Positions 11,015 through 64,000 of a DNA stretch of 64,000 nt are shown here, piece by piece (position 1 is the first letter of the stretch; each line of letters opens with the position of its first letter). The DNA lies in contig CM039008.1 of the NCBI GenBank assembly GCA_017499595.2, positions 2,914,001 to 2,978,000 on the forward strand, given 5' to 3'. The DNA comes from Psilocybe cubensis (Eukaryota). Below the pieces are notes generated by a model. It had not been told where the DNA came from. It made no database searches and saw nothing but the letters and a program-made list of their open reading frames with translations. The position numbers and the translations under genes were made by a program.

Positions 11015-11097
11015 CGAGAGGTCATAACTAAAGCTCGCTTTGTTCTAAACTCGTTCTATTCTTATCGATCTATATCTAAACTTGTACTCGACGTCAA

Positions 11098-12574
11098 ATG
11101 GCTGACTCGACAACCGCGGAAGTCAACATCGGCGGATATCGCATCGACACACTGAAGGCCCACAATTGGATGCCGTGGAAGCGGCGCATGCTAGCAGTAC
11201 TGGTGGACCTCGGACTGGAGAAATACGTGGACGGCACGTCGCTTCGACCAGGATCAGCGAAACCGAACGCACCCACGGCGGAAGAAATCGCAGCTCAGAC
11301 AGCGTGGGATAAGGGAGATGCGAAAGCGCGATGCAGGATCGAACTCGCGTTAAGCGATGCGGAGATGGTACACGTCCTGGGAGCGCGCACGGCGCGCAAG
11401 ATGTGGACGCAGTTGTGCACAGTGAAGGAATCCAAGGGACGACTTGGTGTTTTGGCGACACGACGAGCACTTTTCCGGGCAACCGCAGAGGAGGGATGCG
11501 ACATGGCAGAGCATATCGCAAAGCTACGTCAATTCCAGGAGGAGCTGCACATCATGGGCAGCATTGTTTCGGACGAAGATTTCGTCATGATTTTGCTCAC
11601 CTCGTTGCCGGAATCTTGGGAGAATTATGCGTCATCCTTTTTGGGCTCGAGCGGGAATCGTCCTACGCTCACTTCGCAAGAGCTCGTTGGTGTTCTCCTT
11701 GAAGAAGCTCGTCGTCGGAAGGAGCGTGGAGGTGATGGTGCCGGAGGGACTACGCTTCAAGTTTGTGGAGGTCAAGGGTCGTCGGATGGAAAGGGTAATG
11801 GTTCGAGGGATGGCAGCGGCGGGAAGGAGTGCTATAATTGCCACAAGATGGGGCACATTTCGAAGGATTGCTGGGCAAAGGGCGGAGGTCGTGAAGGAAA
11901 GGGTCCGAGGGGGCGGAAGACGAAGAATAGAGGGCGGACAAATCAGGCTCGGGAGGACGTCAACACTACGCTCAATGATGAGGTTGCGTACCACACGTAC
12001 TCGACGTCGAACTTCTCTCGTTACGACTGGCTTTACGATTCTGCAACCACCAGTCATGTTTGTCCCGTCCGTGAAGCCTTCATCGAGTATACGCCACTCG
12101 TTAATTCCTCCGTTCGTGGTGTCGGAAAGAGTCCAGCTATCATTGCAGGCCGCGGAACAGTCATCCTCAACTTCGATGTCGACGGGCAGACGATTACTCA
12201 TCGTTTGAAAGACGTTTTACACATCCCTGAAGCCGAAAATGCTTTGATGTCGCTCGGAAGGTTTGAGAGGGATGGGAGGAGCTCGTCGTTTAAGAATGGG
12301 AAGGTTCTTTTGATGGATGCGAAGGATAAGGTTATTGGAAAAGGGTCGAAACGCGGTCAGATGTATATTCTTCACGCTCGCGCTCAGCTTAATTCAGGGG
12401 AACAGGTCAACTACGTCTCGCCAAAACTCACCTGGGATCAATGGCATCGTCGTTTTGGCCATATCTCAGTGTCGTCGTTGCAGAAACTCGTCCGGAACGA
12501 TCTCGTCGTTGGTCTTTCCGTGGACGAAACGTCTATTCCATCCCCATCGTGCGAGGCGTGCATCCAAGCGAAGC
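11098..12574 (+). CDS. Copia gag-pol 5' part (gag, zinc knuckle, protease, GAG-pre-integrase), interrupted
   Basis: CYNCHKMGHISKDC, WLYDSATTSHV, WHRRFGHIS...CEACIQAK; breaks at the KDZ insertion. Confidence 0.95.
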
Positions 12575-12575
12575 C

Positions 12576-12892
12576 ACATAAGACAGTTTATTTATAACGT
12601 ACATTACCTAAGATTTAATAATAAGGATATTACGTGAGACACGGTGGATTTACTTCCGCTACCTAATTAGGAGATTAGCGTGATGTACGTGTGATTTAGC
12701 CTGGCAAATCATAGCGTACATGACGTGCCATTTAGCGCTAAATGGAGCCGCCGGGTGGCCTGCGGGATCCGCGCGTCTACCTACACGGAAGAAACACGGG
12801 CCGGAAATGAGCCGGACGGGTCCATTTGCATCCCGTGTATTGCAAGCAGACGGATCCGCTTGACCCGTGTTGTGCTGTCAGACGGACCCATT
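12576..12892 (+). repeat. Left TIR of KDZ element (317 bp)
   Basis: Exact reverse complement of 27825-28141; contains palindromes CCTAATTAGG and CCATTTAGCGCTAAATGG and several ACACGG motifs. Confidence 0.96.
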
Positions 12893-13017: not shown

Positions 13018-14297
13018 ATGGATTATGCCTTTGAGCTAACCCAATCCCTCTCAAACTACATGAAGGCAAAGATAGCTAGTCGTCTTTGGCATGCAGAACT
13101 GCCTAATCAAATCCGGGAAAACTTCAGTGCTGAGACCATGTTTGAGTGCAATCTAGCTGTGGAGGTGATTTTGCAGGCATTTGAAAATCAAGGTATGCAA
13201 TCAATAAGCTTTGAAAATTGAGATTAAATAATGTGTGAATGGCAGAATATACGACGTGGGATGCAGAAGAATATTTGACCCATCTCAGCGCACGTTGCAC
13301 GGGTCAGAATTCTGCCGTTGAGGCTCGCCTGAAAGACCAGTTTCCTCCGGTGCATTCCACGTTACAGTACCAAACCCTGCCCGGAACTGTAATCGATAGT
13401 GCAGGCAACATATTGGTGTGGTACCTGCCAGGTATTTTGTCAGAGACAAGGGTGGTGAGTTTTAGAAACGGACCAATTAATTCCTATATTATGCGTTCTA
13501 AAGAGTAACAGGAGAGTGTGTGGAATTCATTACGGGATATTGAAACAATGATTCACAAGGCGGCACCTTTGGCCACAAGCTGGAGGGTCAATGACAGTTA
13601 CTTTCGACATGAGCCAGGTTGGCTTCAACCTGGAAATCTTAACTTTTCCCCGGCATGGTTTCAGCAAGGCCATGAGGTGAGAAACTTGTTTGCTAAGTAT
13701 TATACTGCCTCATATTTTCCTCAGACGTCCAACCCGCTTGAGGTCTCCTTGGACTTGTGTAATCCTATTGGACAGGAGTTTATACGAGACATGATGACAT
13801 CTTCGGCTTTGCTGGGAGCCATCTTGAGCATTATACACCCCGAGCAGTACCGGGCGGGAATAAAATTTCTTCAACGGCTTGCTGCGGAACCGGAGCTCGT
13901 CCATAAGGCCAAAATATTGAAGCAAATTCTCACAATATGGAGTTCGCCCTTTGGAGTCATGACCGCCATCAGCAACCGAGATACACCGTACCATCGGGAT
14001 AATGGGTCATGCTACTCATGGTACGATTTTTTGATGCCACTTGGGAAGGGTGAACATGGACGGCTTGAGCTTCCTGGCCTTGGACTTCGGTACAAGTATG
14101 ATCCCATGACCCTTGTTGCAATTACCGGCAGGTTGCTTCAACACGGCGCGGTGTGCGAGGGAGATAGGGCAGTCATAGTCTATTACATGCGTAGGAATGT
14201 ATTTAAAGAGCTGGGAGTCCAAGAGGCGGGATGGTCTACTACGTACGATCTTTTTGCAAATTTACCGGCCACCAACACTTTTGATTTTGAAATATGA
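13018..14297 (+). CDS. TET/JBP-family 2OG-Fe(II) dioxygenase (4 exons)
   Basis: Exons 13018-13192, 13246-13454, 13512-13676, 13725-14297; SPAWFQQGH, NRDTPYHRD (HxD), LLQHGA (distal His), DRAVIVYYMR (2OG-binding Arg); lies in a KDZ element. Confidence 0.9.
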
Positions 14298-14381
14298 TCA
14301 GTTTTTGACTTGGAAGTTGGGTTTGGGGAAGATTTTTTTATATTTCCAAAACAAAACGGTACGAAAGCTACAGAACAACCA

Positions 14382-14659
14382 GAATTCTCTGTCCCAGGGT
14401 GTTTCCGACGCGCCCGCGCTGAGCTCTTCCAAGGTTACCGGAATCATCGGACTCCGCCGTCGTATTACCGGCGGAAAAGGCATCATCCGCCTCCTCTTCG
14501 ATGTCCTGTGCGAGAGGTGGGCAACTAAGATTCCTCATCCCAGGGTGTTTCCGACACGTCCTCGCTAAGCTCTTCCGAGTTACCGGAAGCATCTGACTCC
14601 TCCGTCGTATCACCGGCGGAAGACTCCTCATCCGCCTCCTCTTCAAAGTCCTGTGCGAG
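14382..14659. repeat. Diverged ~135-bp tandem duplication
   Basis: ~14382-14515 resembles ~14529-14659 (CCCAGGGTGTTTCCGAC...CATCCGCCTCCTCTTC...GTCCTGTGCGAGA). Confidence 0.8.
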
Positions 14660-16149
14660 ATGCTCTAAAAACGTAGCTGGTGTAGAGGATTCAGTGGTAT
14701 CGGACGTACTATCAATATCATCCTCTTCTCCCGGGAAAACAGGTCTTGACCTTGCGTTAAAAAGGAAGGCATTGCTGGTGTGTGCATTTGACGGAGGGCT
14801 GACGGAACCGGGAGTAGGCAGAGTATCTGTTGGGAGATGAATATTTGCAGTGTTGGAGGGTGGCGAATGATACCAGAGTGGATGAAAAGGTAGTTCCTTG
14901 ACGGCAATAAAAGAATAAAAAATGTCGTTGATGTAAAATGAAGCGACTTTGAGCTTTGAGACCTCGAAGGACCGGGCTTGAGCCGTTATAGCGCCCCAAC
15001 TGTCAGGAGAAGGGTGAACGGGATGCTGAAATTTGTATTTGGCTGAAAGCCCCTTGCCGTTAGAGAACGGGTGCTCCTTAGAGTCAATCCACATCTTCTC
15101 CAATACAGAATATCTGCCCAAGGCGGCCGAAGAAGTAGTCACTGCTTTATGGGCATTTTTCATTTTGTCCGCCACATTCCGGCGCAGGTGAGCCAACTCC
15201 CTCATTACGCCCGTTAGGATAGGCTGACCGCAGTGGGGACAGTAGGGCGGTCTGTGGTCAGAAATTGCAATTGGGGATGTTTCATCCCGCGTGTTTGCAA
15301 CACGGGTCGGCGGATTGGGTTTCCCCGTGGGCGGTGAAAACGCGGAGCCGTGCTTTCCCGTCAACGCGGATCCGTGCTTCCCCAAGGTGGGGACGGATGT
15401 CCGTTCAGCCGCCTTTCCCTTGCCCTTGGGATTGTTTTCCTGATTTCTTGGAGGCCCAGAGGTAGATGAACTTGCGCCCTCCTTAGCTTCTTTCCTCTGA
15501 TTATTTAGCCGGAGTACCTCTTGTTGGTATTCAGGCAGAACCACCTGGTGGGAAGGACGCAAATCAGATATAATCCACAGCAATAAAAAAACATACCTTG
15601 TTCCAAAATTCTCTTGCTTGCGATTCAACGGTAACAAAGGCAACTTGCCACTCATCGCCTTCAGCAAATCCGTCCCTCCACCAATATCCCCAGCTCTTGG
15701 TCTGATTTAAAATTTCATCATCTTCCCATGCTGACCAGCTTTGATTTAGAGATTCAAATAGAACAGCTCGATGGTGGGGAGTTCGGTTCAAAACGGCATG
15801 TACGCTCTGATTGAGAATTTCTGATATAAAAAATGGAATATCGACTTGGAATCCATTGACATAGCAGTATCCGAGTACTCTCAGCAGTATAGCCTGACGA
15901 CCAGTTCTCAATACAAGATATAATCGTTCAAAATAACTGTCTTACCACCTCCAGGTCGAGCAAATACATCCATTTTTGGCGACGCACGGAGGAAACAGAG
16001 TCTCCGTTTGCAATGAACAAACGGTATCCGGCATGGATCCGTGCACCACAAATATGGACATGAACTTTGGCCAGAGCACGTCGCTCATCATAGGTAAGGA
16101 GATGATGTTCGTCCTCGACAGGAGGTTTAAAAAGCCGCGGTAAGTGCAT
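14525..16149 (-). CDS. KDZ cargo protein of unknown function (3 exons, CPHC motif, acidic tail)
   Basis: Exons 16149-15946, 15893-15597, 15544-14525 join in frame with GT-AG introns. Confidence 0.72.
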
Positions 16150-16193
16150 GAATTCAACGAGATGGGATACAACAAGAATGTTCAAAGAACTGG

Positions 16194-19100
16194 TTAATCT
16201 GTAATTATAAATCTCCACACGGACGGATACTCCGGGTTAATTTGACGGAAGACCTTATCCGCGGCCCGCCCCAGATCATTCCACATGGCAATCTGCTTTT
16301 GAGCATTTGCCCTGTGACCAACTAACCTGTCAGGAACAAAATCATGCCGTGCACGCCATGTCTTTGCCATATACACATAAAATCTGACAGTCCATTCCAT
16401 TTCCTTTTTTGTCAAGGCCAGCTCCTCTTGCCATCTATTCCTCTGAGCTCGCGCGCGGAGCCAGTTTAGCCTAAAGACTAAGAAGCCCTTGAGAAAAAAA
16501 TTAGAAATACAAATAGCAGTACTCACACTCATTAACGTATAATTGATTATCATTGTCCAGGCCCTGACGGGATCTCCAAATCCAACTTAGACGGTCCGAG
16601 CTTCCTCCGCGAATGTTCGGATCCGACACGGCATTACTATGCTTGCAATCATGGACTTGCAGAATGGGATATTGTTTCCGAATATTATCCTCATCTCGCA
16701 CGCCAGCAGATAAATAGATCATCTTCTGACGGTTTGTGTTGTAGAGTCGCCGGTGCAATTTCCAGGAAGCATTCAAAAGCTTGACGCCATCCCAAGCACG
16801 AGTCCCCATATAGATGGAGTCGGCGGTCCGAACCTGATATTTATACTGCCAAGAAAGCTGGATCAAGGCTGACCGGACCGCTTCCAGACAGTCCTCTGCG
16901 TGGCCATGTCTTATTTGAAGTTCAAGTTTGCGAAGCCCTTTTAAAATGAGGTTTGTTCCCGCGTCAAGGCCGTCAAAGAAATCTTGTTTGACGGCGGAGG
17001 GAAACAGAAGCGGCTGTCGTTCTGGATCCGCGCGGGTAATGTTGACATTTCCAAGATCAGGATCGTCGTTGTCACTGACTTCATAGTCAAGTATGGGAGC
17101 GATGTCCCCTTGAATATCCTCCAAGACATCTTCGCCCATGAAGGTCATAGCGGATCGACAGAAGGCTTCAACGCGGGTCCGCATGGAGCGACGTTTATTG
17201 ACCAAGTCAAGTTTCTGCGCGGTGGAAGGATGCTTTCCGAGCTTTCTGACATGGTCCCTGAGCTCCAATCTAAAAGCATGTTAAATTCTGTAGGATGCAA
17301 TTGAAATAATCGTACTGCGCTTGCTCCAGTTTTAAGCCGGATGATATCCATGCTGCCTTTCCAGTAGCACCATTAGATGTAAGTTCCATATTTGAAAGAT
17401 GCAATTCAATTTCTTGGCGTCCAGCAGCCGTTTTCACTTTGCTTGCCATTACCTTGCCAACAGCGTCGGCCACACCTTGTTCTCGGTCCGCTTCTGCTTT
17501 TGAAATTTCATCTTCCCAAGTGTTGATGAGCCCGGAATCTTGTTGATCCGTGATACCCCTATAAAATCGGTCTGTGATTCCGGACTGTTCCCGTGCCCGT
17601 TTGAACTTTGCAGCAATTGTTGCAGCCATATTAATGGTCTTCTTCCAGTTGGAATCCCCCATGTGGTCGTCCAAAACCTCTGCTCGATGGGCAGTGGTAG
17701 CGGAACGTGTACTCCGGGATGTGTCATTCAACACGGACCACAACGGCTCCAGGATTTCTCCGTCAATGATTCCCACACCCGGGACATAGGTGGATGCGTA
17801 GTTGTAAAGACATTCCGTCTTGTGCCCGTGGACGTGAAATAAACCAATTGCAAAAATCATTTTAACAGAAGGTGGCCAATGCATTTTTGTGGACTCTGAG
17901 AGACGCCTTGCCAAGTTAACGCAATATTGACAGTTTATATCGTAGATTTCCAAATGTTTTGTGATTCCCTGTGTGTTGGTAGTTTCCCTGGCCTGAGTCA
18001 AAGACCAATCCATGTGCATCTGCTTTTCGCCTTTGTCAAAATCGACAACGCTGGATGGACAGAAGCATCCGTGCCTAGCGCAAGCGTGTGCCCCAATTCC
18101 ACGTACTCTCTTACCCGGGCTGACTCTGTTTTCAGCTTTCTGGGCGTGGTAGTTATGACATGTTTGTTCCTGATATTTTTTTACACGGAGGATAAGCCAT
18201 CCGCCGTGGAAGATTTTTTTGACACGGAAGGGAAGCATCCGCCGTGGAAGATTGTGACACGGAACGTAAGCATCCGCCGTGAAAGATAAATCATGGTAGA
18301 TAACGCACCCGTTTATAACGTGGAGCAAGAGAAATTGCTTCCTTGATGTGCTCCTTGTATGGGCCCGGAGCAGTCATGTATCCTTCTCCAACGCTCAACC
18401 AAACATCGTCTCCCTCGTTTTTCTGATTGAGGTGATCTGCTTTGAAATTACCATCTGCAACATAACTACGTATGTACAGATTGCTATTTGCTGTTAATTG
18501 CAGTCACCCTTGAAGAATAACTAAAACTTGCCTGTCAGCATCATCAATCCAGGTATCAGGTAGGTTTATTCCAGGCTGTGGACAGGCGGGGCAGAATAAG
18601 GCCAACTTCCCTCTCCTATCTTCAACTTTGGGATGATCCTCGGTCCGCGTCATTTGTGGTGCAGGCGGACCATCTAATCCGCCGTGTCCCAGAGACGGGT
18701 CCGTTGACATTCCGACTTCTTGAGACGGACTATCAGATCCGCCGTCAATTGGATCAGATACATTAATACCCATCCTCTCTGGTGATGAATCATGGCAATG
18801 ATGATAGTAAGGGACCACCGCTTCTCTTGTATGCCCTTCTCCGTATTGTCGTCTCAGGACAAGGTCCCTGTATTCTCTACTAAGCCTTCTCAATTCACGA
18901 TAGCGGTTCAGCACCTTTTTTGGAAACGCTGGCAAAGTCAGTCTTCGCAACTTTTGGTAATACTGATAAGCCGACGTTTTGCACTCGAGGTTGTCCATCC
19001 GAAAGTCCTCAAGGACCTCAACTGTGAACACAGTTTGAACGTTTTCAAAGCTGGCTGCAAATAATCCCATCTCCAGATACTGTAAATTGATAGACGGAAG

Positions 19101-20116
19101 GCGGACGGACCGGCATGTGCATGTTCGCACGGGCAGATAATGGACTCCGGAGGTGTGCACAATTGCCTTGAAAGGAATTCCATTGTTGTCTGCTGCCTTT
19201 GGACGAGGTTGGTCCAGATAGGTTGTATCGACTTCCTCGAATAGATCATCGTCTTCATCGTCTCCATCGTCCAGCTCAACCAAATGGGGTACCTCCGGGT
19301 CCGCCAGAAGCTGAGCCGTAAAGGATTCTTGGTCATTGCTCGCAGGAAGCGGATCCAGGTCCAATCCGTGTTCATCCTCAAAGATGGGCAAATTGTTTCC
19401 GCCGTGCCCATGACTCCCGGATGAATTGTTTCCGCCGTCGCATCCTAGATGGCTCGGATCCGTGGGATAAGGACACCGCTTCCCATTATGACCCAAATAC
19501 AACTTGACACCCACTTCCCACAGAGCTCCCGGACGGAAATATAGACCCGTCCACTTCTCAACGCGGTGGAAAGGTGTAAATTGATGGTTTCTTCGCAGGC
19601 ATTCAGAACACAAAATTCTAGAGCCAAAGCATTGGCAACATCTCCACACTCCAGACATTCCTTGACATTGCTGACACCGTCCATTCAGATCCGGATCCGG
19701 GGCTTCTCCTCCAATCATTGTTCCAAGATACACCTCTCGTTTCGGGAGCCATTCCCTCAGGTAATCATTTTGAGACTGGATAGGTAAAGTCATCCTGATC
19801 ATTCTACTGAAAACATGTTAAAACATACCTTTCCTCCCGTTCTGTCGTCATCTAGCTGTCTCAGGTTATCAAGTACCTGCTGATCAGTTAGATCTCCCGG
19901 ATAATGAGGTATTTCTTCTTCCAGAATGTTGTGTTCATGGTTTTGGAAAGAGTAAGTCGTTGTTTGAGGGAGGTTTGTTGATGATGATTCTGCAGGAAGT
20001 TTGTGGATCCTCGGCCGCCCTCTCTTTCGTTTCTTGGCCCCACTAGACCAGGAGGCCTCCCGAACATTGGGAAACTCCTCATCCGATCCCCTATCAGGTA
20101 CTTTCTTGAAGCCCAT
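16194..20116 (-). CDS. KDZ transposase with CxC2-type cysteine cluster (6 exons)
   Basis: CQQC..CCQC..CSEC..H..PFH; VHTSGVH..CTC; CPACPQPGINLP; DGNFK; CARH; YDINCQY; FHVHGHKTEC; DGEILEPLW; WLRARAQRNRWQEE; exons 20116-19829, 19775-18532, 18483-18309, 18169-17316, 17269-16527, 16477-16194. Confidence 0.93.
18183..18297. repeat. Three ~36-bp tandem repeats in a transposase intron
   Basis: ACACGGA-N3-AAGC(C)ATCCGCCGTGRAAGAT three times. Confidence 0.85.
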
Positions 20117-28141: not shown

Positions 28142-28144
28142 AGC

Positions 28145-30837
28145 AGACGCATAAACCTTTCCCTGGAGAAGCAGAAAATCGATCCACGGTTCCTGGAGAG
28201 CGAACCATGAGTGACGTATGGGGTCCTATCGGAATACGCTCGGTAAATGGATTTTATTACTACATTACGTTTATGGACGACGCGAAGCGATACAACGGCG
28301 TGGTTTTCTTGAAGGACAAGAAGGAGGCGGCGAAGGCGATTGAGAATCATGGGGAGCGAGTGAAGAGGAGGTTTGGGCAGTATCCGAGGTACATTCGCAT
28401 GGACAATGGCAAGGAACTCGTGAACGAGCGGATTAAGAAGTGGGCGGCGGAGAGAGGCATTGAAATCGAGACGACGGCGCCATATTCCCCATCTCAGAAC
28501 GGCGTTGCAGAGCGCTACAATCGTACGCTGTTGGAGCTAGCACGTGCGATGATTATTGCAAAGAATTTACCTCTCTTTCTCTGGGACGAAGCGGTCAATT
28601 ACGCGAATTATTTACGCAACCGCGCGCCTACTCGAGCACTCGACGACAAGACACCATATGAAGGCTGGCACAACAAGAAACCGGATGTTTCTCACCTTCG
28701 GGAGTTCGGATGCGATGTATGGGTGTTAGACGAGACGAAGGGGCTTTCGAAGCTCAAGCCACGGTCGAAGAAGAAGGTATTCGTTGGTTTTAATGAAGGC
28801 TCGAAGTCTGTGCGTTATTACGATCCCAAATCGCGCACAGTGAAGTCATCGCGAAACGTATCGTTTAACGAAAACGAAACGCCGCAGAACGTCGAAATTC
28901 CTGGATTATCGTCTGAGGGGGAGCGTAACGAATCGACAGACGTTAAATCCAGCGAAAACGAGCCAGAAACCGTCAAGAACGAACCTATTTCGTCTACAGC
29001 ACCGATTCCACAGCCCAGCATACGTCGATCAGCTCGTGAACACAATTTCATCGATTACAAGAAGGCAAACAACCCAAATGCTCGTTTACCGACTACACGA
29101 TCCCAAACGACTCCAAACGCACCACAAATCGCTACAAAATCGACCGAGACCTCGAGCGCAAAGTCTACAGCAACGGAGCAAGCAAACATTGTCAAAGAAC
29201 AGCTGTGGGGCGCGATTTTAGACGATTCGGAACGTGTCTTCGCCATGCGCGAATCGGACGTACCTCGGACACTTGAAGAAGCTTTGGAAAGCTGTGAGGC
29301 AGCTGCGTGGAAGGCAGCTATGGACGAAGAAATCGAGACGCTTTTACGGATGGGTACTTGGGAGATGATGAAGATTCCGGATGGAAGGAAACTGGTTGGA
29401 TGCCGTTGGGTCTACGCGAAGAAACGGGACGAAAACGGGAACGTCATCAAGTACAAGGCCCGACTAGTCGTTCAGGGATGCTCTCAGAGACCTGGTACAG
29501 ACTACAGCGAGGACGGAACATTCGCACCAGTCATGCGATTCGACACGCTACGCTCGCTACTCGCATATTCGGCCGTACACAATCTCAAGATGCGTCAATT
29601 CGATATAAAGGGTGCATATTTGCACGGTTACATCTCGGAGGAGATTTATATGGTCCAACCACCCGGTTATGACGATGGCACTGGTCAGGCATGCCGTCTC
29701 ATTCGTTCGCTTTACGGTCTCAAGCAGGCAGGAAATGTATGGAACCATGAACTCGATAACGCTCTCACTTCATTCAGTTTTACGAAACTCAAGAGCGATT
29801 ACTGCTGCTACATCCGTCGAGCTGAAAACGGCGATTTTACAATTTTAGTTACCTGGGTGGACGACATAATCAGTTTCTCAACGAACGACTCGCTCAACGA
29901 CCAGCTGGAGCGTGAATTAGGCTCGAAATTCGACGTTAAATCGATGGGTCAGCCCTCGATGATGCTAGGATTTAAGCTCGAGCAAAAGGACCATTACATT
30001 TCGCTCTCGCAAGCACACTACATCGACAAACTCCTCGAGAAGTTTGGTTTACAAGACGCGAACCCCGTTTCGACGCCTATGGACCCGAACGTGCGATTGG
30101 ATAAGGATGAAGGTGTTCGGGAGGATGGAGACGGTCAGGGGGAGGTTAATTCACGTTTAGGATTCAGTTATGCAACGGTCATCGGCTCGCTCATGTATCT
30201 GGCACTCGGAACTCGTCCAGACATCGCGTTTGCAGTATACAAACTCGCGCAATTCACCAGCAAGCCAAAATCGACTCATTGGACCGCTGTCAAACGTATA
30301 TTTCGTTATCTGAAGGGCACGCGCAATCACAAACTCACTTACGGCGGCGATTCGCAAGTTTTGGACGTAAATCTCAATGTTTATTGCGACGCCGATTGGG
30401 CTGAAAATTACGATCGGAAGTCGACTAGTGGATACGTGGTTACGATAGCAGGCGGCGCTGTGGCATGGAGCTCGAAGAAACAGAATACGGTCGCACTTTC
30501 AACCGCTGAAGCCGAATACGTTTCCACAACACATGCGGCGAAGCAAGTCTTATGGCACCGCTCACTCTTCACGGAGCTCGGTTTCCACATCCCGTCGACG
30601 TCAACCATCTTTACCGACAATACGGCAGCCATTTCGATTGCGCATCATCCAGAATTCCATGCCCGTACGAAGCACATTGACATTGCATTTCATTTCCTAC
30701 GCAACTTGGTGGAGAAGAAGACGCTCGACACTGTTTACATCAACACTTCAAACAATTTGGCGGATATATTTACGAAGGCCTTACCTCGAGTTGCACACGA
30801 CGGCTTCATTTTGCAGTTGGGAGTTTTGGCCGACTAA
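28145..30837 (+). CDS. Copia pol 3' part (integrase, reverse transcriptase, RNase H)
   Basis: SDVWGP, RMDNGKE, QNGVAERYNRTL; KARLVVQG, FDIKGAYL, SLYGLKQAG, WVDD; CDADW, STAEAEY, LADIFTK. Confidence 0.96.
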
Positions 30838-55487: not shown

Positions 55488-57744
55488 ATGAAGGATACAT
55501 ACACATTTGCAACCCTTTTTCTGGCGGCGGTCGCATGGCTGACCTTCAAGATCGCGCGTATCGGACGGCGGGACGGAAGACTGCCACCTGGACCACCAAC
55601 CGTTCCCGTGTTAGGCAATATTCACGAGCTTCCACGGAAATTCGCATTTCTGAGGTGAATTGGTTTATCATTCTCGCCTTGGAGTGCATTCGCCGATGAG
55701 TATGCATAAGGTTCTCTGAGTGGGGAAGGAAGTATGGGGGTATAATATCCGTGAGTATGTTCAAATGTGTGGCGAACAATTGAAATTATCAACTTCTAAT
55801 TGCAGATTAAGCTGGCAAACGCAACGGCTATTGTTGTGTCCGACCTGAAAGTGGTGAAGGAGCTCCTTGACGATCGCAGCAGTGAGACGTCATCAAGGCC
55901 ATATTCCTATGCATTGGAGGCTCTTTCCAAAGGAAATTTCTTCGTGCTGGCGTCCTCAGGCAAGTTCTAGCCTGGAATTATGTGGTGATAGCTATAGAAA
56001 AATGAGGCGAAATGACGCATAACAGAAAGTCTTGTATGGCGCGCGAGCCGCAAATCAATCCAGCCGTTTTTAGCTGTGCAAGCAAGCGACCTACATGTGC
56101 CGATTGTGGAACGCGAATCGTCGGCTCTATTGCATGGCATTCTGCACAATCCTGGCGTTAGTCCTTCGATCACTTAAGCAAGTAGGCAATCTGAGATTAC
56201 TTCTACAGGCTATATCGTCCCATATCTTGCGTTATACCTTTTCATCCATCGCCTACTTTGCCTTTGGAAAGCGAGTGTTACGACACGACTCTCCAGAACT
56301 TCAGAGCTACCAGACTTATATTCGAAACTTTTGCAAGGCAGTGTCCCCAGAGGCTGCGCCGGTGGATCTTATCCCGATACTCAGATATGTTCCTGACTTT
56401 TTGGCTCCGTGGATGAAACTTTGGCGGGAGACGCGATCGCAGCAACTGTCGCTGTACAACTCTTTTCTTGAGCATGCGGAGCGGGTTAAAGAAGGTGAAG
56501 GCAGAAACCGAAGCATTATTCAAGCAACCCTTGAACAGCGTCACGAGCTTGGTTTAAGTCGAGAGACGGTCGCGTAAGTGATGGAACTATTATATCTTCA
56601 AGTATCTTATGCGCTTTCTACCAGATACACTGGAGGTGTACTCTTAGATGCCGGAACGGAAACGTTAGCGACGACAATGTTGTCGCTGATCCTTTGCCTC
56701 ATGAAGAGCCCTGCGGTGTTGAAGAAGGCACAGAACGAGATCGATGAGCTCATTGGAAGTAAGAGGCTTCCAGTTGCCAATGACATCGAAGAGCTACCGT
56801 ATATCCAAGCTATAATCAAAGAGGTTATTCCCACTTCTTAAGAACGTTTGAGCATAGGATTGACGCAATTGTTAATTAGGTTTTGCGTTTCAGGCCTTCC
56901 ATACCCACTGGTATTCCGCATGCCCCTCTTAATGATTGTCATGTATGTCCCCAGCCCACCCAGACTGCGTATGGTATCCGTTTACATTTTATCTTGCATT
57001 TTAGTACGGTGGCTACACTATTCCCAAAGGTTCTGCTATCTTCATTAATACATGTAATTTTGTTTACCTGAGCTTTCAATCATTTGACCTCACTGATTTA
57101 ATTTTGCCAGGGGCAATATTCCACGATCCAGGTACGTCATATTTAATGCTTCAACGTTGTATCATAGGTTGTGATTATTAATGCATGTGATATGGTAGAC
57201 TTGTTTGAGCGTCCAGACGACTTCTGGCCGGAACGGTACCTCCTGACACCCGACGGTACAAAACCTGGCTTGAACAAAGATTACAACATCCGGTCGAGTT
57301 TATCATTTGGCAGTGGAAAGGTACACACTGGATGGCAATGTACATGTCTGGATCTATCTGATCATTTATATCTTTACATATACAGAGATTATGTCCCGGG
57401 ATGAACTTTGCGAGAACTAGCCTGGTATCCTCCATCTACTACCATTGCGGGGATTTTGTCTTGACTAACCAATCTTTACAGAATGTCGCAGTTATGCGTC
57501 TCATCTGGGCGTTCGATTTTGAGCCCGGAGATAATTCGAGTAGAATGGACCAGTCGTGGTCTCTGGAGGAACATTACTTTGAGGTCAGACCCTCACTACG
57601 ATTAAAGTTTATCTGTTTCTTATCGATGTCAAGGGTATCACATTGACGCCTAAGGAGTTCTCTTGCAGGATGACTCTACGAAGCGCAGATAGGGCAAAGG
57701 CTATTGAGGATAGCTATATCTTATACGAGAATTCGAACGCTTAG
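55488..57744 (+). CDS. Cytochrome P450 (multi-exon)
   Basis: [45 protein letters not shown]; stop at 57744. Confidence 0.94.
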
Positions 57745-58182
57745 CTAGACCCTCTGAACTTATATCCCTTTTTTGTAATCCCACGTCGACGTGACTTGGA
57801 GTGTTGTAGGTAGTTTGGTCGTTGCGGCAGCTGATTATACCATATGGTAGGTTTAACTTCCTCAAAAAAATCCTCTTTATTTCTTAATAGCAAATCAAAG
57901 CAATAATTCAAGCACTGAGATTGTGTGTTGATTGATTCTTGATGACACACCAATGGATGATCAGCGTACTAAGTATATCAATGTCAATGTGATCTGCAGG
58001 AGCCCCGCCGTACCATTCCGACTCCCAAATATATCTTAGGAGACCCAGTCAAGTGTTCTACAATTAAGACAGCACGGATTGGACTTGTTTTAGTGGGCCA
58101 CCGCGGAGCGTGGCATGACGAGTCTTTACAATTCAGCGTCACGCTTTGTAATAATATAATATATATATAATATAATATAAAT

Positions 58183-59157
58183 ATGTCCAACTTTGACGTG
58201 GATATCGGTGCAATGGACGAAGTGATATTCAGACTCCAAGGCATAGTTAGCGACAAGATGCTACCACCAATGGCAAAGCCTGCCTCGTACGTCCACTCCA
58301 TTGAGGTGAATTAATTACAAATGAGGACTGTTACAGCCGCGACAGAACGGTCAAGCAACAACCATATTTACGTACCACCATTGCTATCACGGGACTCGGA
58401 GACATTGTGTTCAATAAGGTGATGGAAAAGCTAGAAGAAGTTTTCCTCCGTTTTGCAAACAATTTTCCCGCGGACAGTGTCAGCGGCTATGACCCAGTTC
58501 TTTACAAAGACACGGGTTTCAATGTTTTCCATGCGCATAGCCAATATTTCACGAAGGTATCCGCATATCAAAACAAATCTGACAACATAGGTTTTCATCC
58601 CCTGGTCGACCCTGATAACGTGTTGGCGTCCATGGTAGGGGACAGTTTCATCCACGCAATCGATAACAAGGTACAGTTTCTTCGTCGGGAGATACTTCCT
58701 GACGGAACAGCCAGGTATGTTTAGAAAATACCAACAACACATCACAACCAAACTAATATCATATTGCAACAGATATTATTCTTATAATCCTGCCTCCATA
58801 CGAATTGGAGACATTGTCGAGATCAGTGTTGCCTTTGTCGCATTTCCTGCCCAAGGAAACAAGTACAAATTTGTTGTCGCTCTTTGCGGAATACTTGTCT
58901 TGGACCAGGAGGCAAGAGAGGTAAGCAATTTTACATTGAACAGTCTCATAGCCATTCATAACTTCCAACAGAAAGCTGATATTCTCAGAATGTGGTCGCG
59001 CTATACTCCAGCGAAAAGACAGGTTGCTGTTTTGTGTAGGACAAAGAGGCAGCTGTACAAAGGTCAGATTGACATTGAAGACACGCAATAGAGGATGGCA
59101 CGTATGCGCTTAAATGAGGACACAGTCCACAATAGCAATACTATGTCCCAAGATTAA
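58183..59157 (+). pseudogene. Cargo gene of unknown function (4 exons; premature TAG at 59089-59091)
   Basis: EVIFRLQGIVSDKMLPP | ITGLG..VDPDNVL..HAIDNKVQF | PASIRIGDIVEISVAF; the frame continues past the TAG to TAA at 59157. Confidence 0.65.
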
Positions 59158-59301
59158 TACATATGTACATAGAAAGACAAGGATATCATAAATGTGCTGA
59201 ACAAACAATCAATCCATTTGCGTGAACATTGTAAATAGCAAGGAATAATTTGTCAAGTCATTTTCATGACAGAAATTATCTGAAGGTGTTAGTTGGCACC
59301 C

Positions 59302-59483
59302 CATGGGAGAATCCTGCGTACACTGTACACAGAATATTCCCACACTCGGCTGAATATCGGCGAGGAAGTCCGTGGGAGAATTCTGCGTACACTGTATGCA
59401 GAATATTCCCACACTTGGCTGAATATCGGGAGAGGTTGACCGTGGGAATATTCTGCGTACACTGTACGCAGAATATTCCCACG
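59302..59483. repeat. Three ~70-bp tandem units, each with a ~43-bp palindrome
   Basis: 59441-59483 is perfect: CGTGGGAATATTCTGCGTACA-C-TGTACGCAGAATATTCCCACG. Confidence 0.92.
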
Positions 59484-59579
59484 CTCATCCGCAAGTCAAA
59501 CTTACAAATTAAGACAAAAAGAATGAGGACGAGAACACAAGTTTATTTCGAACAAAAATTTGACTAAGGATGGAAGAAA

Positions 59580-62535
59580 TTACAAATATCCATTCCACAA
59601 GAGGCTTTGTGGTTGAGGGCGATGCAACCAAAAAATATCTGCCTTTCTGGATAGCAAATACAAAACAGTTGCATGTACACGGTCATCTTTTTGCCTACAT
59701 TACAGGAATTAAATTGACAAATACTAAAACTAAAGAGCACACACCTTATACCCCTTTCCCAGGATTTGATAGCTTTTTTGACACGCTTGTGTAATTGGTA
59801 AACATCTGCCGCTGTGTAGTGAAAATCTAATGCGATACCGCTGATGCGACGGACACCAAAATGCAAACAATCAAATTCATTGAGCAACAATGCCCACGAA
59901 TTGGCTTCAACAAAGGAAGTCTGATTTGCTTTGGGTAAAAGAGGCAAAGAATAAACCCAACAATGCCTGTCGCCAACCCGTCTAATCCCAGGAGAGAACA
60001 ACTCTGGATAAGGATCGTAATCCAGCACAACGAGAACATGACCACGAGATGAACTATACCCAACATTTACATTGTCCCTAATAGACTGTATCCTGCTTTG
60101 GATATGGTGGTCCATTTTCAAAGTTTGCGATGGAATGGAAAGAACAAATTTCAAGCCACGGGAATGATATTTTGCAAGAAATTTTTGCACACGCTTGAGG
60201 TCGGCAGAAGGTTGCAACAGAGAGACTTGATGTCTAAAGGTAGCATTTGGATACAAGCTGTACACCTTCTCAAAGGTAACAAAATTCATGATGCCGGCTG
60301 CAGTAGAACAAAATTGAAGTTAACATTGTTTTGACACATGACATTGGGGATATACTGCTATGATACCCCAAAATGCACTCTACCACCAATTGACAAGTCG
60401 TAATCAGTTGGACAAAAGAACCTTGGCACCATAGGTTAACGACCACTCCAGTGGTATTGTAATGTCGATAAAGAGGATGTTTCTGAAGGACAATTTTTTC
60501 CATTTTCAAAATTTTTTCCGCTGTGGTGTTGTCCGGATATTTGGGATGCGGCATGATAGTAAATCCAATGGACATCATCCAGGAAAGAACGGGAAGAGCA
60601 TATCTGTGCTCAACATACATGTCCATGTCACCCGGAATCCATATATTAGCACGATTGATTACGAAACTTTATGTAAGTAAAGCGAGTTCTTTTATCCCCA
60701 CAACCCACTGTACAAAAATATGTCCTTGCCAATTGTCCCCATCAGTAAATCATTGATGCCATCAAAATTGCGTGATTAATACCGGTTTTTTATTTAACCG
60801 GTATGCTTGACTTAATAATCGGTTACTATCATAGAATTTCTGTTAGTTTTTGTTCCTACCAAGGGGATATGGAAATTAAAATACTAGATATTAGCTAGGT
60901 AGATAGGTTAGCTGCCATATGGTAGAAAACAAAATTAGATACCATTACATTATGACTTTTTAATTGCAAGTTAAACATTTTGACGCAGATAATCATTGCT
61001 CATAACCAAAAATTTTATAATAATGACCTCATTCAATTGATTTAAGGCCATTAATTAGTCACAATCAATTACATACCAACTGTTTTGCATGCTTTATACA
61101 CCTCTAACGGCAAGTAGAGGTAAATAGAATGCTTTATTGTTATCAAAAAAAATTTAGCATGAATAACTAGCAGACTGTGGTGGCATAGAATAAAGAATAA
61201 TAAACATTATGTATCTAGCTATTATCTTTAATGCCACTTCAAATAACTTGTCATATTAAACTTGTTGTGCTGTTCATACTGGCCATGAATTAATAAGCAG
61301 ACTGTGGGAATAATTTGCATATAGTGTATGCAAGTTATTCTCACGGTTGCTGCACTTTGCATTGAGCAACTTGAACTTCTCTGGTAATTCCTGATATATT
61401 ACTGAGATGCATTGCATATACTTTAGGTAAAATACAAGTATTTTTGGCAATAATAATTATTTTCAGTCCTAGTTTAGATGATCTTATTATATTTTACTTG
61501 CTGTGGTGTTTGTACTGGTCGTGAATTAATAAGCAGGTCGTGGGAATATCCTGCGCACACTGTACGCAGGATATTCCCACGGTCACTACACTCAATTTGC
61601 ATTGAGCACTGGCCACTTTGGTCAAGAAATGGTCATTTTGAATAATGTTTTCCATGCATTGAATGTATTTTGGGGAAGAAATAATGCACTAACACTTGCA
61701 AATTATGCTTGAAATATGTTTCCACACAGCCAATTGTGTTCACAGCAACATCAAACTATGCCAAAAAGAAATATGCGCACCAAACAAATGTTTTTGCACA
61801 CAATATTGTTTCACTCTTGATGCACTTTTCAAAAATAAGAAAATTATATTTATGGGAAATATGTCCCCACTTGGGCAGCCATACACATGAGCATTCTTCC
61901 ATCAGTTTTCCATACGGGATTCTCCCAGCAGATCTGGAATTCTTCAATATTTAGCAGGTATGAAAATTATAATAGACAAGTTCTTCCTTACAATTAGGCC
62001 TTATAACCTGTGCAGCTATTTTTTGTGTCTGACACAACTAAGCTTGTAGTAGACCTAAGTCATAGTAATTAATCATAACCTTGCCCAGTATCTGGCTGTG
62101 CATTCAGAACATATTAATATATATTAACTATGTTATATAAATCTAGATTAAAAAATATTTTATACAATTGTGAGATGTAAAGTCTTGTCATGCCACGCTT
62201 TGCGTTGGACCACTAAAACAAATAAAATGCAAAACGGTGGAACCTGAAATAACCAGGCCAGTCTTGAACTGGAGAAGACAAAACAGCAAATGTTCATTGG
62301 ATTTGAAGATAGGAGCAAATAAATTTTTGGGACGGAAGGTGCGGCGCATATAGCCCAAAACGCGGTCGTTTAGCTCCTTGCAAGTCCAAGAGAAACGGTA
62401 GAGGGTTTTCAGATCCATCTGATCCATGTACACATCGTCCATGGGAGGCGGAAAGACTCTAAAAAATAAGTAATAACCAAATGAGATAAAACAGTGAACA
62501 TACTGTTGGAAACGGGGGGATAACGCGGAAGCCAT
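59580..62535 (-). pseudogene. F-box-like plus Pol-beta nucleotidyltransferase-like cargo gene, split by the nested element
   Basis: Joining 62223 to 60658 gives GLVISGSTVLHFINRANIWIPGDMDMYV in frame; then YHST|GIMNF, KYHSRG, RRVGDRHCW; N-terminal LKTLYRFSWTCKEL. Confidence 0.75.
60659..62222 (+). mobile_element. 1564-bp non-coding member of the same Helitron-like family, nested in inverted orientation
   Basis: First ~110 bp match the reverse complement of ~63098-63206; last ~47 bp match the reverse complement of 58084-58130; A^T target; removal restores the host ORF. Confidence 0.85.
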
Positions 62536-63318
62536 GGGTAAAACAGTGCGGAGAAAAGTGCATTGTCTATACTACGTCAATAAATATATTAACCGTAAGC
62601 CAATAGACGCCCGACGTAGGGGAAGAACAAATTGGTATGCGTGAGAAACGATCATGAATCAGAAAATCAAATTCAAATAGTACCAAACGCCCAGAACCCA
62701 AGAACGCGTAATTATTTCTATTTGAACTCTGATTGATGAAGCTACCAATATCAAGGAACGTGTGTGCCTGCACAGTTCTATTTCCAACCTTTCAGACCCA
62801 TAGTTCAAAGAGTGCATTTGTTCCATCTTTAAGTATTAGTACAATATATAAGCACGTTGGCTAGACGGTTCCACATGGTTTTAAAAATTAAACAACAACG
62901 CAAAAAAGTGAATTGAGTAGGACTATTGTTGTTGGGTATAATTAATTTTATGGAAACGCACATTCACATTGCGATCAAAACAAATCAAAAACAACCTTTA
63001 AAGTAACCAATGGTAAAAAGAAGTTGTAGAATGAATTGGAAAGGGGTTGCTTAGGGGGTCCGGTGACCGCTTAAGGAAAATACCGATAGCGGTAACGACA
63101 TTGATCGCATCAATAATATTTTGATGGGGACAATTGGCGAGGACATTTTTGCTTGCTGGGTTGTGGGGATAAAAGAACTCATCTTTACTTACGTAAAGAC
63201 TCGTAATTCCCCAGATGGAGGCGTTATTTAAATTTCATAAATACGCGCTCCATTGACATTCCATATCTCGTCGTTCTTCCAGTTTCTCACTTACCTGCAA
63301 GGCCGCACCTGTACTGCG

Positions 63319-64000
63319 ATGGGCGAATCACGGATAGTGACCCTTGTACTATGTACAGGCCTCGCATGGCTGGGCTTCAAACTTCTGCGTATTGGCCGAC
63401 GGGACAAGACGTTACCGCCCGGCCCGCGTACTATCCCTGTACTTGGAAACGCGCACTTGATTCCGTCAAAGTTTTCGTTCTTGAGGTGCATTCCCGCTGT
63501 CGTGTATCATACCGTTGTGGATCCTCTCAACTGAATTGTACCATAAGGTTCGCGGAGTGGGGCAGGAAGTACGGTGGCATATACTCAGTGAGTGTCTGAA
63601 CCTGCCGACCGACCGACGGACCCCTGACGTTATTTTGAATGTACGTGGGGATTACAGATCAAAGTGGCGAACGCCACAGTCATCGTGTTGTCCGACATGA
63701 GAGTGGTCAAAGAGCTTCTGGATGACCGCAGCAGCGAGATGTCGTCCCGGCCGTACATATACGTGGCAGATATCCTCTCGAATGGGTATTTCTTTACGTT
63801 CTCACCGTCAGGCAAGTGCTAGGGGAGATTTATTTTTAATTTTATACAAGGTGTGCCAAACTGACCCTTCTGAATTAAATATTGTAGAGAACCCTGTGTG
63901 GAGAGCGAGTCGGAGGTCGATTCAGCCGTTTTTTACTGTGCAAGCTGCGCCGCTGCATATACCGATTTTGGAACGAGAGGCGGACACGCTTCTGCGGGAC
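63319..64000 (+). CDS. Cytochrome P450 (5' part; runs off the window)
   Basis: MGESRIVTLVLCTGLAWLGFKLLRIGRRDKTLPPGPRTIPVLGNAHL | FAEWGRKYGGIYS | IKVANATVIVLSD. Confidence 0.93.

Follow-up and report, generated by a model that had tools for sequence, protein, structure and literature searches.

Helitron2 elements, as set out by Bao and Jurka (2013; PMC3627910), carry asymmetric terminal inverted repeats of 8–15 bp, of which the 5' arm lies 0–2 bp from the end and the 3' arm lies upstream of a 3' hairpin, while a 5' hairpin takes in part of the 5' arm and the 5' nucleotide is T. An equal layout is given for HLE2 in the HELIANO paper (PMC11417382), to which Thomas et al. (2014; PMC4067079), describing DINE-1/HINE elements, add tandem repeats in the centre and a microsatellite. 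Published targets vary among Helitron2 families (TTTT^T/C, PMC3627910; TNAT^T or TNAT^A, PMC5148889), and Helitron2 has already been recorded in Agaricales, namely in Agaricus bisporus (PMC12730594). In a 64,000-nt stretch of the Psilocybe cubensis genome (contig CM039008.1, positions 2,914,001 to 2,978,000 of the forward strand; hereafter the window, to which all coordinates refer), we found two related elements lying one inside the other in opposite orientation, an outer one at 58084–63206, between two cytochrome P450 genes, and an inner one at 60659–62222. These are probably two non-autonomous members of one Helitron2-type (HLE2) rolling-circle family, in which the nested composite would then have spread.

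Four public sequencing runs were aligned to window positions 57000–64000 at a likeness of 85%. Run X13 consists of raw reads, 29224 of which aligned, and runs X1, X7 and X8 consist of contigs, X7 and X8 being labelled as other organisms. The read-alignment figures given here are the best-supported ones, and a further 411 loose ends, 22 joints and 631 differences lie beyond them. Hairpin stability was expressed as folding energy against 200 shuffles (z-scores), the inverted repeat was compared with 20000 shuffles of the first 25 nt plus the last 60 nt of the element, and the enzyme RepHel was looked for in a Pfam scan (Helitron_like_N, PIF1) of the 37 longest open reading frames (ORFs) of the window. 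The outer element has the following parts.

58084–63206, minus strand: outer non-autonomous element, 5123 nt, 5'-TTACGAG...AACAAG-3', delimited by an X13 joint and depth steps
63193–63204, minus strand: ACGAGTCTTTAC, 5' arm of the asymmetric terminal inverted repeat, lying 2 nt inside the 5' tip
58118–58129, minus strand: GTAAAGACTCGT, the 3' arm of that repeat, placed directly upstream of the 3' hairpin and 34 nt short of the 3' end
63182–63199, minus strand: 5' hairpin overlapping the 5' repeat arm, 7-bp stem and 4-nt loop
58097–58114, minus strand: 3' hairpin; the 13 nt after it finish with CAAG (58084–58087)
58083, minus strand: T directly after CAAG, invariant on the element strand, target base or terminal base
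63066–63206, minus strand: 5' terminal block common to the inner element, matching 60659–60802
58151–58184, no strand: AT microsatellite just inside the 3' repeat arm, with an AT-rich stretch at the equivalent place of the inner element
59304–59486, no strand: central tandem repeat, 2.6 units of 69 nt with a palindrome of ~41 nt in each

The two repeat arms of the outer element pair perfectly over 12 bp, a length attained in 0 of 20000 shuffles, and they are placed as in HLE2 (repeats of 8–16 bp, the 5' arm 0–4 nt from the tip), the 5' arm near the tip and the 3' arm upstream of a hairpin. The 5' hairpin, which again as in HLE2 uses part of the 5' arm, folds at −4.7 kcal/mol (z −2.86); 4 of 200 shuffles did as well. 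An earlier reading of the window from its letters (the sequence-only reading) had pointed to the 12-bp asymmetric repeat, to a small 5' hairpin and to a TT start with a CAAG end, and all of these hold; the 3' hairpin that it placed at 58097–58114 is present, but its stability is not beyond that of shuffled sequence (−5.7 kcal/mol, z −1.08, 26 of 200 shuffles equally good). The central tandem repeat is positioned between the 3' ends of two convergent passenger genes, and its palindromes fold down to −25.3 kcal/mol (z −11.7).

The inner element lies in one of these passenger genes, gene a. Its parts and the two genes are as follows.

60659–62222, plus strand: inner non-autonomous element, 1564 nt, ~34% G+C, TTACGAA...AACAAA, without a long ORF
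60661–60672, plus strand: inner 5' repeat arm, ACGAAACTTTAT, pairing with 62177–62188
62177–62188, plus strand: inner 3' repeat arm, GTAAAGTCTTGT, pairing with 60661–60672
62193–62208, plus strand: weakened inner 3' hairpin, −3.7 kcal/mol, no better than shuffles
61300–61345 and 61539–61585, no strand: two related palindromes within a 236-nt direct repeat
59583–62535, minus strand: passenger gene a, split by the inner element (tblastn pieces 62535–62221, 60665–60354, 60397–59744 and 59696–59583)
58183–59091, plus strand: passenger gene b, antisense to the element, with exon starts at 58183, 58347 and 58771

The kinship of the two elements is seen at both ends. Their 5' blocks (63066–63206 and 60659–60802) are 78% identical over 145 nt, with a 24-mer (63157–63180 in the outer copy) that is identical in both, and their 3' blocks (58085–58130 and 62176–62221) are 87% identical over 46 nt; neither of the terminal patterns of these blocks was found in 100 shuffles of the window. 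The sequence-only reading had proposed two related nested elements in opposite orientation, and this is confirmed. The likeness begins at ATTACGA and stops at CAA[G/A]T, and the two elements have in common only their ends and palindromic units of ~41 nt, among which compensatory double changes occur at 4 of 20 stem pairs (five units compared). A BLASTN search of the window (word size 9) showed no copy besides the outer element, the inner element and their internal palindromes. Although the inner copy in the window ends in AACAAA, position 62222 is G and not A in 270 of 279 and 340 of 346 reads, which makes CAAG the majority end.

The terminal features of the inner copy are weaker, in line with the decayed versions that had been described from sequence. 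Its repeat arms form 9 Watson-Crick pairs and 2 G.T pairs with 1 mismatch, its 5' hairpin is weak (z −0.21), and its 3' stem-loop keeps the location that it has in the outer copy, with energies (outer z −1.08, inner z +0.31) that are beyond shuffles in neither. When the repeat arms of the two elements were compared by eye, one pair was found altered on both sides (T-A to A-T), and each of the three imperfect pairs in the inner copy is a transition, C-to-T or G-to-A. Excising 60659–62222 restores the reading frame of gene a, as had also been claimed: the paralogue P0009 aligns with the upstream gene piece to residue 73 and with the downstream piece from residue 75, which is indicative of one split codon between the pieces, and the annotated copies P0075 and P0076 run uninterrupted across the junction (...LHFINCAN... 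and ...LHFINRAN...).

The read alignments give exact boundaries and a copy number. In X13, depth rises from ~32–40 in the flanks to ~650–760 in the element, about 19-fold, in steps that fall exactly at the 58084 and 63206 edges, and the X1 repeat contig terminates exactly at 63206. A joint from 58082 to 63206, carried by 16 X13 reads with at most 73 nt on the shorter side, skips 5123 nt and represents the empty site of the outer element; it is ambiguous by 1 nt. A second joint, from 60657 to 62222, skips 1564 nt in 39 reads and corresponds to an outer element that lacks the inner one; its position is ambiguous by 2 nt. At the 3' boundary (58083), 537 X13 reads exit into varied sequence whose consensus agreement is 0.35, which indicates that the copies sit at many different places. 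Copies ~96–99% identical (pieces of at least 240 nt) with other flanks occur in X7 and X8 contigs, and the flanks of the 58084–63206 locus were not found in these contigs, while X1 contigs span both junctions of that locus. Since X1 bridges the junctions and X13 holds the empty-site joint, one sample has the insertion and some reads of another lack it. The annotated passenger clusters (20 members for gene a, 18 for gene b) agree with the copy number from read depth, and at least 9 adjacent gene a/gene b locus-tag pairs are found on 8 contigs that differ in length. The family is thus mobile, multi-copy (~19) and recently active, and its presence varies between samples. A mobile, non-autonomous family with Helitron-type anatomy, as the sequence-only reading had envisaged, is supported, and the elements have no coding capacity for a transposase of their own.

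The absence of a target duplication, claimed earlier from the window, is confirmed by the empty-site joints of 5123 and 1564 nt in raw reads, in which a 1-bp duplication of T is possible. The empty sites read GGGGAA/TCCAAT and GATTGA/TAAAAT (slash at the joint), with one T in each. This T follows CAAG in both window copies (58083 and 62223), in the X7 and X8 contigs and in most X13 reads, while the base preceding the 5' end is A, A and G at three junctions, the G being that of the X7 contig; the halt of the X1 repeat contig at 63206 fits a preceding base that varies among copies. Three descriptions fit equally, namely insertion of TT...CAAG at N^T, insertion of TACG...CAAGT at T^N, or a duplication of T (1 bp). 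Because the junctions are ambiguous by 1 nt (outer) and 2 nt (inner), A^T is only one of several equivalent readings; A and T do flank the outer copy, as had been noted, but an A^T target, to which canonical Helitrons keep strictly, is not established. The pattern also differs from that of DDE-type terminal-inverted-repeat elements and miniature inverted-repeat elements (MITEs): the repeat is asymmetric and no duplication of more than 1 bp stands at the empty sites; those elements are marked by symmetric terminal repeats and a duplication of at least 2 bp.

The target also bears on a separate rolling-circle lineage mixing Helitron1 and Helitron2, with Helitron2-like ends, an A^T target and a RepHel outside or between the known clades, comparable to the proto-Helentron. 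The single T at both empty sites and the A before the element at two of three 5' junctions would agree with such a lineage; the distance of 13 nt from hairpin to 3' end with a 4-nt CAAG and no T-run recalls the canonical layout, and intermediate forms of the proto-Helentron kind have been published (PMC11417382). However, the third junction has G and the X1 contig stop fits a variable base, the 1-nt ambiguity lets T^N or a 1-bp duplication fit equally well, and Helitron2 targets already vary (PMC3627910, PMC5148889). We therefore consider this lineage unlikely. The signature-mixing hybrid that the sequence-only reading had drawn from the same ends is not borne out, the features being those of the Helitron2/HLE2 and HINE/DINE-1 layout (PMC3627910, PMC11417382, PMC4067079).

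The Helitron2-type reading is favoured because the anatomy, that is, the asymmetric repeat, the nested 5' hairpin, the 5' T, the tandem repeats and the microsatellite, matches the published layout. The ends are not those of a canonical Helitron (TC...CTRR), as the start is TT and the end is CAAG in the outer copy and in the majority of inner ones, and canonical Helitrons are without the terminal inverted repeats and the 5' hairpin, both of which are present here. Neither Helitron_like_N nor PIF1 was matched in the 37 longest window ORFs, which supports the earlier proposal of an autonomous partner elsewhere, at least as one outside the window. Searches with the 5' 24-mer and with a degenerate pattern of the 3' terminus gave 0 matches in metagenome contigs, and the 24-mer gave 0 in prokaryotic genome contigs. 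Rfam over 57500–63700 gave no match at E ≤0.1, by which a tRNA-derived repeat or a repeat derived from a short interspersed nuclear element was ruled out. In the Psilocybe literature Helitrons are mentioned only in passing, and we found no description of the family among papers on P. cubensis transposable elements and genome assembly, judged by title and abstract.

Several observations speak against the Helitron2-type reading. No RepHel was seen in the 37 ORFs scanned, and the assignment to the class is drawn from end structure and absent target duplication; the stability of the outer 3' hairpin does not exceed that of shuffled sequence, and the inner repeat and hairpins, taken by themselves, are statistically unremarkable. 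The ends are without the T-runs of Helentrons as these are described in PMC4067079, and the usual HLE2 target, T^T according to PMC11417382, is found at neither of the two sites with a known empty form. As for the spread of the composite, it is judged from the best-supported loose ends, and shortened gene models are not proof of it.

The nested composite appears to have spread as one unit to most of the ~19 copies. Depth stays level through both parts, outer and inner, only 39 reads carry the uninterrupted form as against 537 that leave the outer boundary, and among the best-supported X13 rows, the smallest of which has 319 reads, no loose end stands at the inner boundaries. Among 16 gene a models (15 of the 20-member cluster plus P0008), 2 span the junction, 13 begin after it and 1 is an upstream piece that continues into the inner element. 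The two models without interruption make up a subfamily that has diverged slightly. Strand-specific recognition of the ends would lead one to expect such a spread, as the inner ends appear as complements on the outer strand when this is processed.

Conceivably, these elements make up a mushroom HLE2 lineage with a single-T target and a preference for A in front of that T, a hairpin-13 nt-CAAG end and a RepHel clade of its own, in which the composite out-competed its parent because the insertion changed mobility. Candidates for such a change would be the knock-out of passenger gene a and the doubled internal palindrome module. If true, this lineage would be a structural bridge between canonical Helitrons and Helitron2, though we regard it as improbable.

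Still less credit can be given to a mobile element that moves without RepHel and without target duplication, through a tyrosine recombinase (Crypton-like), a Spy-kind PIF-like enzyme or a protein encoded in the cargo, and we hold it to be very doubtful. In its favour, no RepHel was found among the 37 window ORFs, both passenger genes are kept in most copies and neither has a Pfam family, and gene a carries a GS...DxD motif reminiscent of nucleotidyltransferases. Yet gene a is split by the inner element in the form that was amplified, its family consists of ordinary genes across at least 9 other Agaricales genera, and the inner element moved without coding capacity. The combination of an asymmetric repeat with two hairpins is, to our knowledge, described only for HLE2. 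That the locus is no transposon at all, and rather a dispersed segmental duplication or multigene family with a chance terminal likeness, as the annotation of the cargo as ordinary hypothetical genes might suggest, is refuted to near certainty by the depth steps exactly at the boundaries, the varied flanks, the precise empty sites, and the unrelated contents between the same ends (cargo in the outer element, non-coding sequence in the inner one).

On the Helitron2-type reading, the history of the composite may be outlined as follows. A short non-coding relative would have inserted into passenger gene a of the outer element in opposite orientation, and the composite would then have been amplified as a unit to most of the ~19 copies. 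A RepHel encoded elsewhere would nick the element strand at the 5' T, unwind it from 5' to 3' and stop at a 3' signal made up of the 3' repeat arm, the hairpin and the 13 nt ending in CAAG. As the published model of Helitron2 has it, pairing between the repeat arms may compete with the 5' hairpin, and the single strand would be joined into the target next to a T that is not duplicated. The antisense inner ends would go unread when the outer element moves, because recognition is proposed to be strand-specific. The nested pair is in this respect a natural test of strand-specific end recognition, and the antisense internal end signals did not stop the spread.

Both passenger genes are annotated as hypothetical proteins. 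P0067 and P0070 are annotated pieces of the gene a copy in the window. The gene a family comprises 60 representatives at E ≤0.001, with relatives in Pluteus, Agrocybe, Cyclocybe, Flammula, Crassisporium, Crepidotus, Volvariella, Marasmius and Panaeolus; relatives of at least 63% identity were found only in P. cubensis, and the nearest other paralogue is 40–43% identical. Two family members are labelled F-box domain-containing by UniRef. No Pfam family was matched by gene a, its 251-aa ORF had no match among longer proteins, and the best hit of the family profile against PDB sequences (E 0.33) was taken as no relative. Across the junction (62223–62260 plus 60600–60658, minus strand) the family consensus reads ISGSTALQFF...SDLDLYVEH. 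It is reminiscent of the G[GS]...DxD signature of nucleotidyltransferase folds, a likeness that the Pfam and PDB sequence searches did not support.

Gene b is likewise without a Pfam family. Its protein matches are only from P. cubensis, and look-alikes in the protein atlas are only unnamed Basidiomycota clusters. A 139-aa fragment is 100% identical to P0001, hypothetical protein JR316_0012004 of Psilocybe cubensis. The window copy ends early at a TAG (59089–59091), and position 59089 is C instead of T in 361 of 365 and 360 of 377 reads; 14 of the 20 gene b models examined are 268–281 aa long, starting with MSNFDVD. An uninterrupted, more diverged pair of both genes, JR316_0004007 (P0075) and JR316_0004008 (P0081), lies three genes from JR316_0004011 (P0009), the 40%-identical gene a paralogue, and the P0081 model of gene b has a 65-residue N-terminal extension that passes the point where the 3' terminus begins in element copies. 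This locus could be the capture donor, or an annotation artefact. In all, ~40 P. cubensis gene models labelled hypothetical proteins are transposon cargo, and gene counts should treat them so.

The copies differ among themselves in several ways. A 119-nt deletion (60482–60600) is carried by 94 reads and one X1 contig, a 39-nt deletion (62717–62755) by 49 reads, an extra 236-nt repeat unit (61353–61588) by 24 reads, and a 35-nt insertion at 61608/61609 by 17–18 X13 reads and one X1 contig. The 5'-terminal 357 nt (62850–63206) are deeper (~940 as against ~700), and 464 X13 reads and one X1 contig join them to a different internal sequence; a further subfamily has this 5' end, and it is the first place to seek the autonomous partner. 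In the inner element, 714 X13 reads enter a 35-nt segment (61849–61883) from uniform sequence (agreement 0.94) and 642 exit it into varied sequence (agreement 0.38), with a depth of ~1050 in the bin 61680–61913. The segment is common to another abundant repeat and may mark where a different repeat family ends. In X7, one contig of low depth matches the outer element from 62222 to the right and has 101 nt of unrelated sequence to the left, the change falling exactly at the inner 3' boundary; it could represent a different insertion at the same site or a shortened copy. A palindrome at 59439–59483 followed by ...CGCAAG/T (plus strand) was considered as a vestigial older plus-strand element end and dropped, with no read evidence bearing on it. 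Finally, 36 of the 40 best-supported differences between the window copy and the read majority are G:C-to-A:T changes in the window copy, 21 of these 36 in CpG context; with direction taken by majority rule, the window copy looks like a silenced copy that has undergone methylation-linked deamination.

Beside the outer element, in the stretch 63207–63534, a P450-like ORF within a P450 cluster has its ATG at 63319, and the 5' end of the element comes 112 nt upstream of that codon. The ORF has 49–56% identity with the N-terminal exons of five further P450 genes in the window, and Pfam did not score this short exon. Since the insertion is absent on 16 X13 reads, P450 regulation may differ between strains, and the insertion upstream of a P450 paralogue is a candidate source of such differences. 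Besides the cluster of P450 paralogues, the Pfam scan of the window gave a retrotransposon of the Copia type and a KDZ transposase accompanied by CxC2 and Tet_JBP domains. The KDZ transposase with CxC2 and the neighbouring Tet_JBP oxygenase ORF occupy 13509–19817, and the Copia-type gag and pol ORFs lie ~15 kb apart (11080–12597 and 28144–30837); the region is transposon-rich. The segment 24001–26000 stands out by a G+C of 57–60% and strong skews (AT skew −0.53), and both of its strands have long ORFs, of 709 aa and 475 aa, without a Pfam match.

Among the described systems, Helitron2 (PMC3627910) is alike in its asymmetric repeats, in a 5' arm that here lies 2 nt from the tip, in the nested 5' hairpin and the T start, and in a 3' arm upstream of the hairpin, and a compensatory change maintains the pairing of the arms. 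The P. cubensis family is unlike it in that its 3' arm lies 34 nt from the end as against the ~20–30 quoted, in its CAAG end, and in a single-T target that is not TTTT^T/C. HINE/DINE-1 elements (PMC4067079) are likewise non-autonomous and multi-copy, with subterminal repeats of 12–15 bp set 2–4 nt inside the 5' end and tens of nt inside the 3' end; their 5' arm encloses an inverted repeat, and they have a 3' stem-loop, central tandem repeats and a microsatellite. They are animal elements that insert in TT and have T-runs at their ends, whereas the P. cubensis element is fungal, carries two whole genes in its 5.1 kb and lacks T-runs.

Two fungal systems come close in other respects. FoHeli1 and FoHeli2 of Fusarium oxysporum (Chellapan et al., 2016; PMC5148889) share a 12-bp asymmetric repeat, hairpins at both termini, a 5' T and near-identical copies that indicate recent activity, and their authors noted the same ambiguity of a T that belongs to element or target. 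They are autonomous elements of 5–6 kb with TCAG at the start and ATTTT at the end, whose insertions follow TNAT, and their termini, as described in the paper, have no sequence similarity to those of P. cubensis. HELPO1 and HELPO2 of Pleurotus ostreatus (Castanera et al., 2014; PMC4289320) are also from Agaricales and carry whole expressed passenger genes of unknown function; they break haplotype colinearity, have a subterminal hairpin and leave no target duplication. On the description in that paper, they are set apart by a 5' T[C/G], a 3' CTRR or CTTG and insertion at AT, and its available excerpts report no terminal inverted repeats. A link to HELPO2 through CTTG, the reverse complement of CAAG, was rejected, as the HELPO2 hairpin is on the other side (PMC4289320).

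The Proto-Helentron and HLE2-reverse forms (PMC11417382) provide a precedent for ends between the canonical and HLE2 layouts, while the layout in P. cubensis is that of an ordinary HLE2. Its departures from the HLE2 layout are limited to the CAAG end and the target. In essence, the family is part of the known Helitron2/HLE2 kind, not a new kind or class, and it adds one case of whole-gene carriage by fungal Helitron-type elements.

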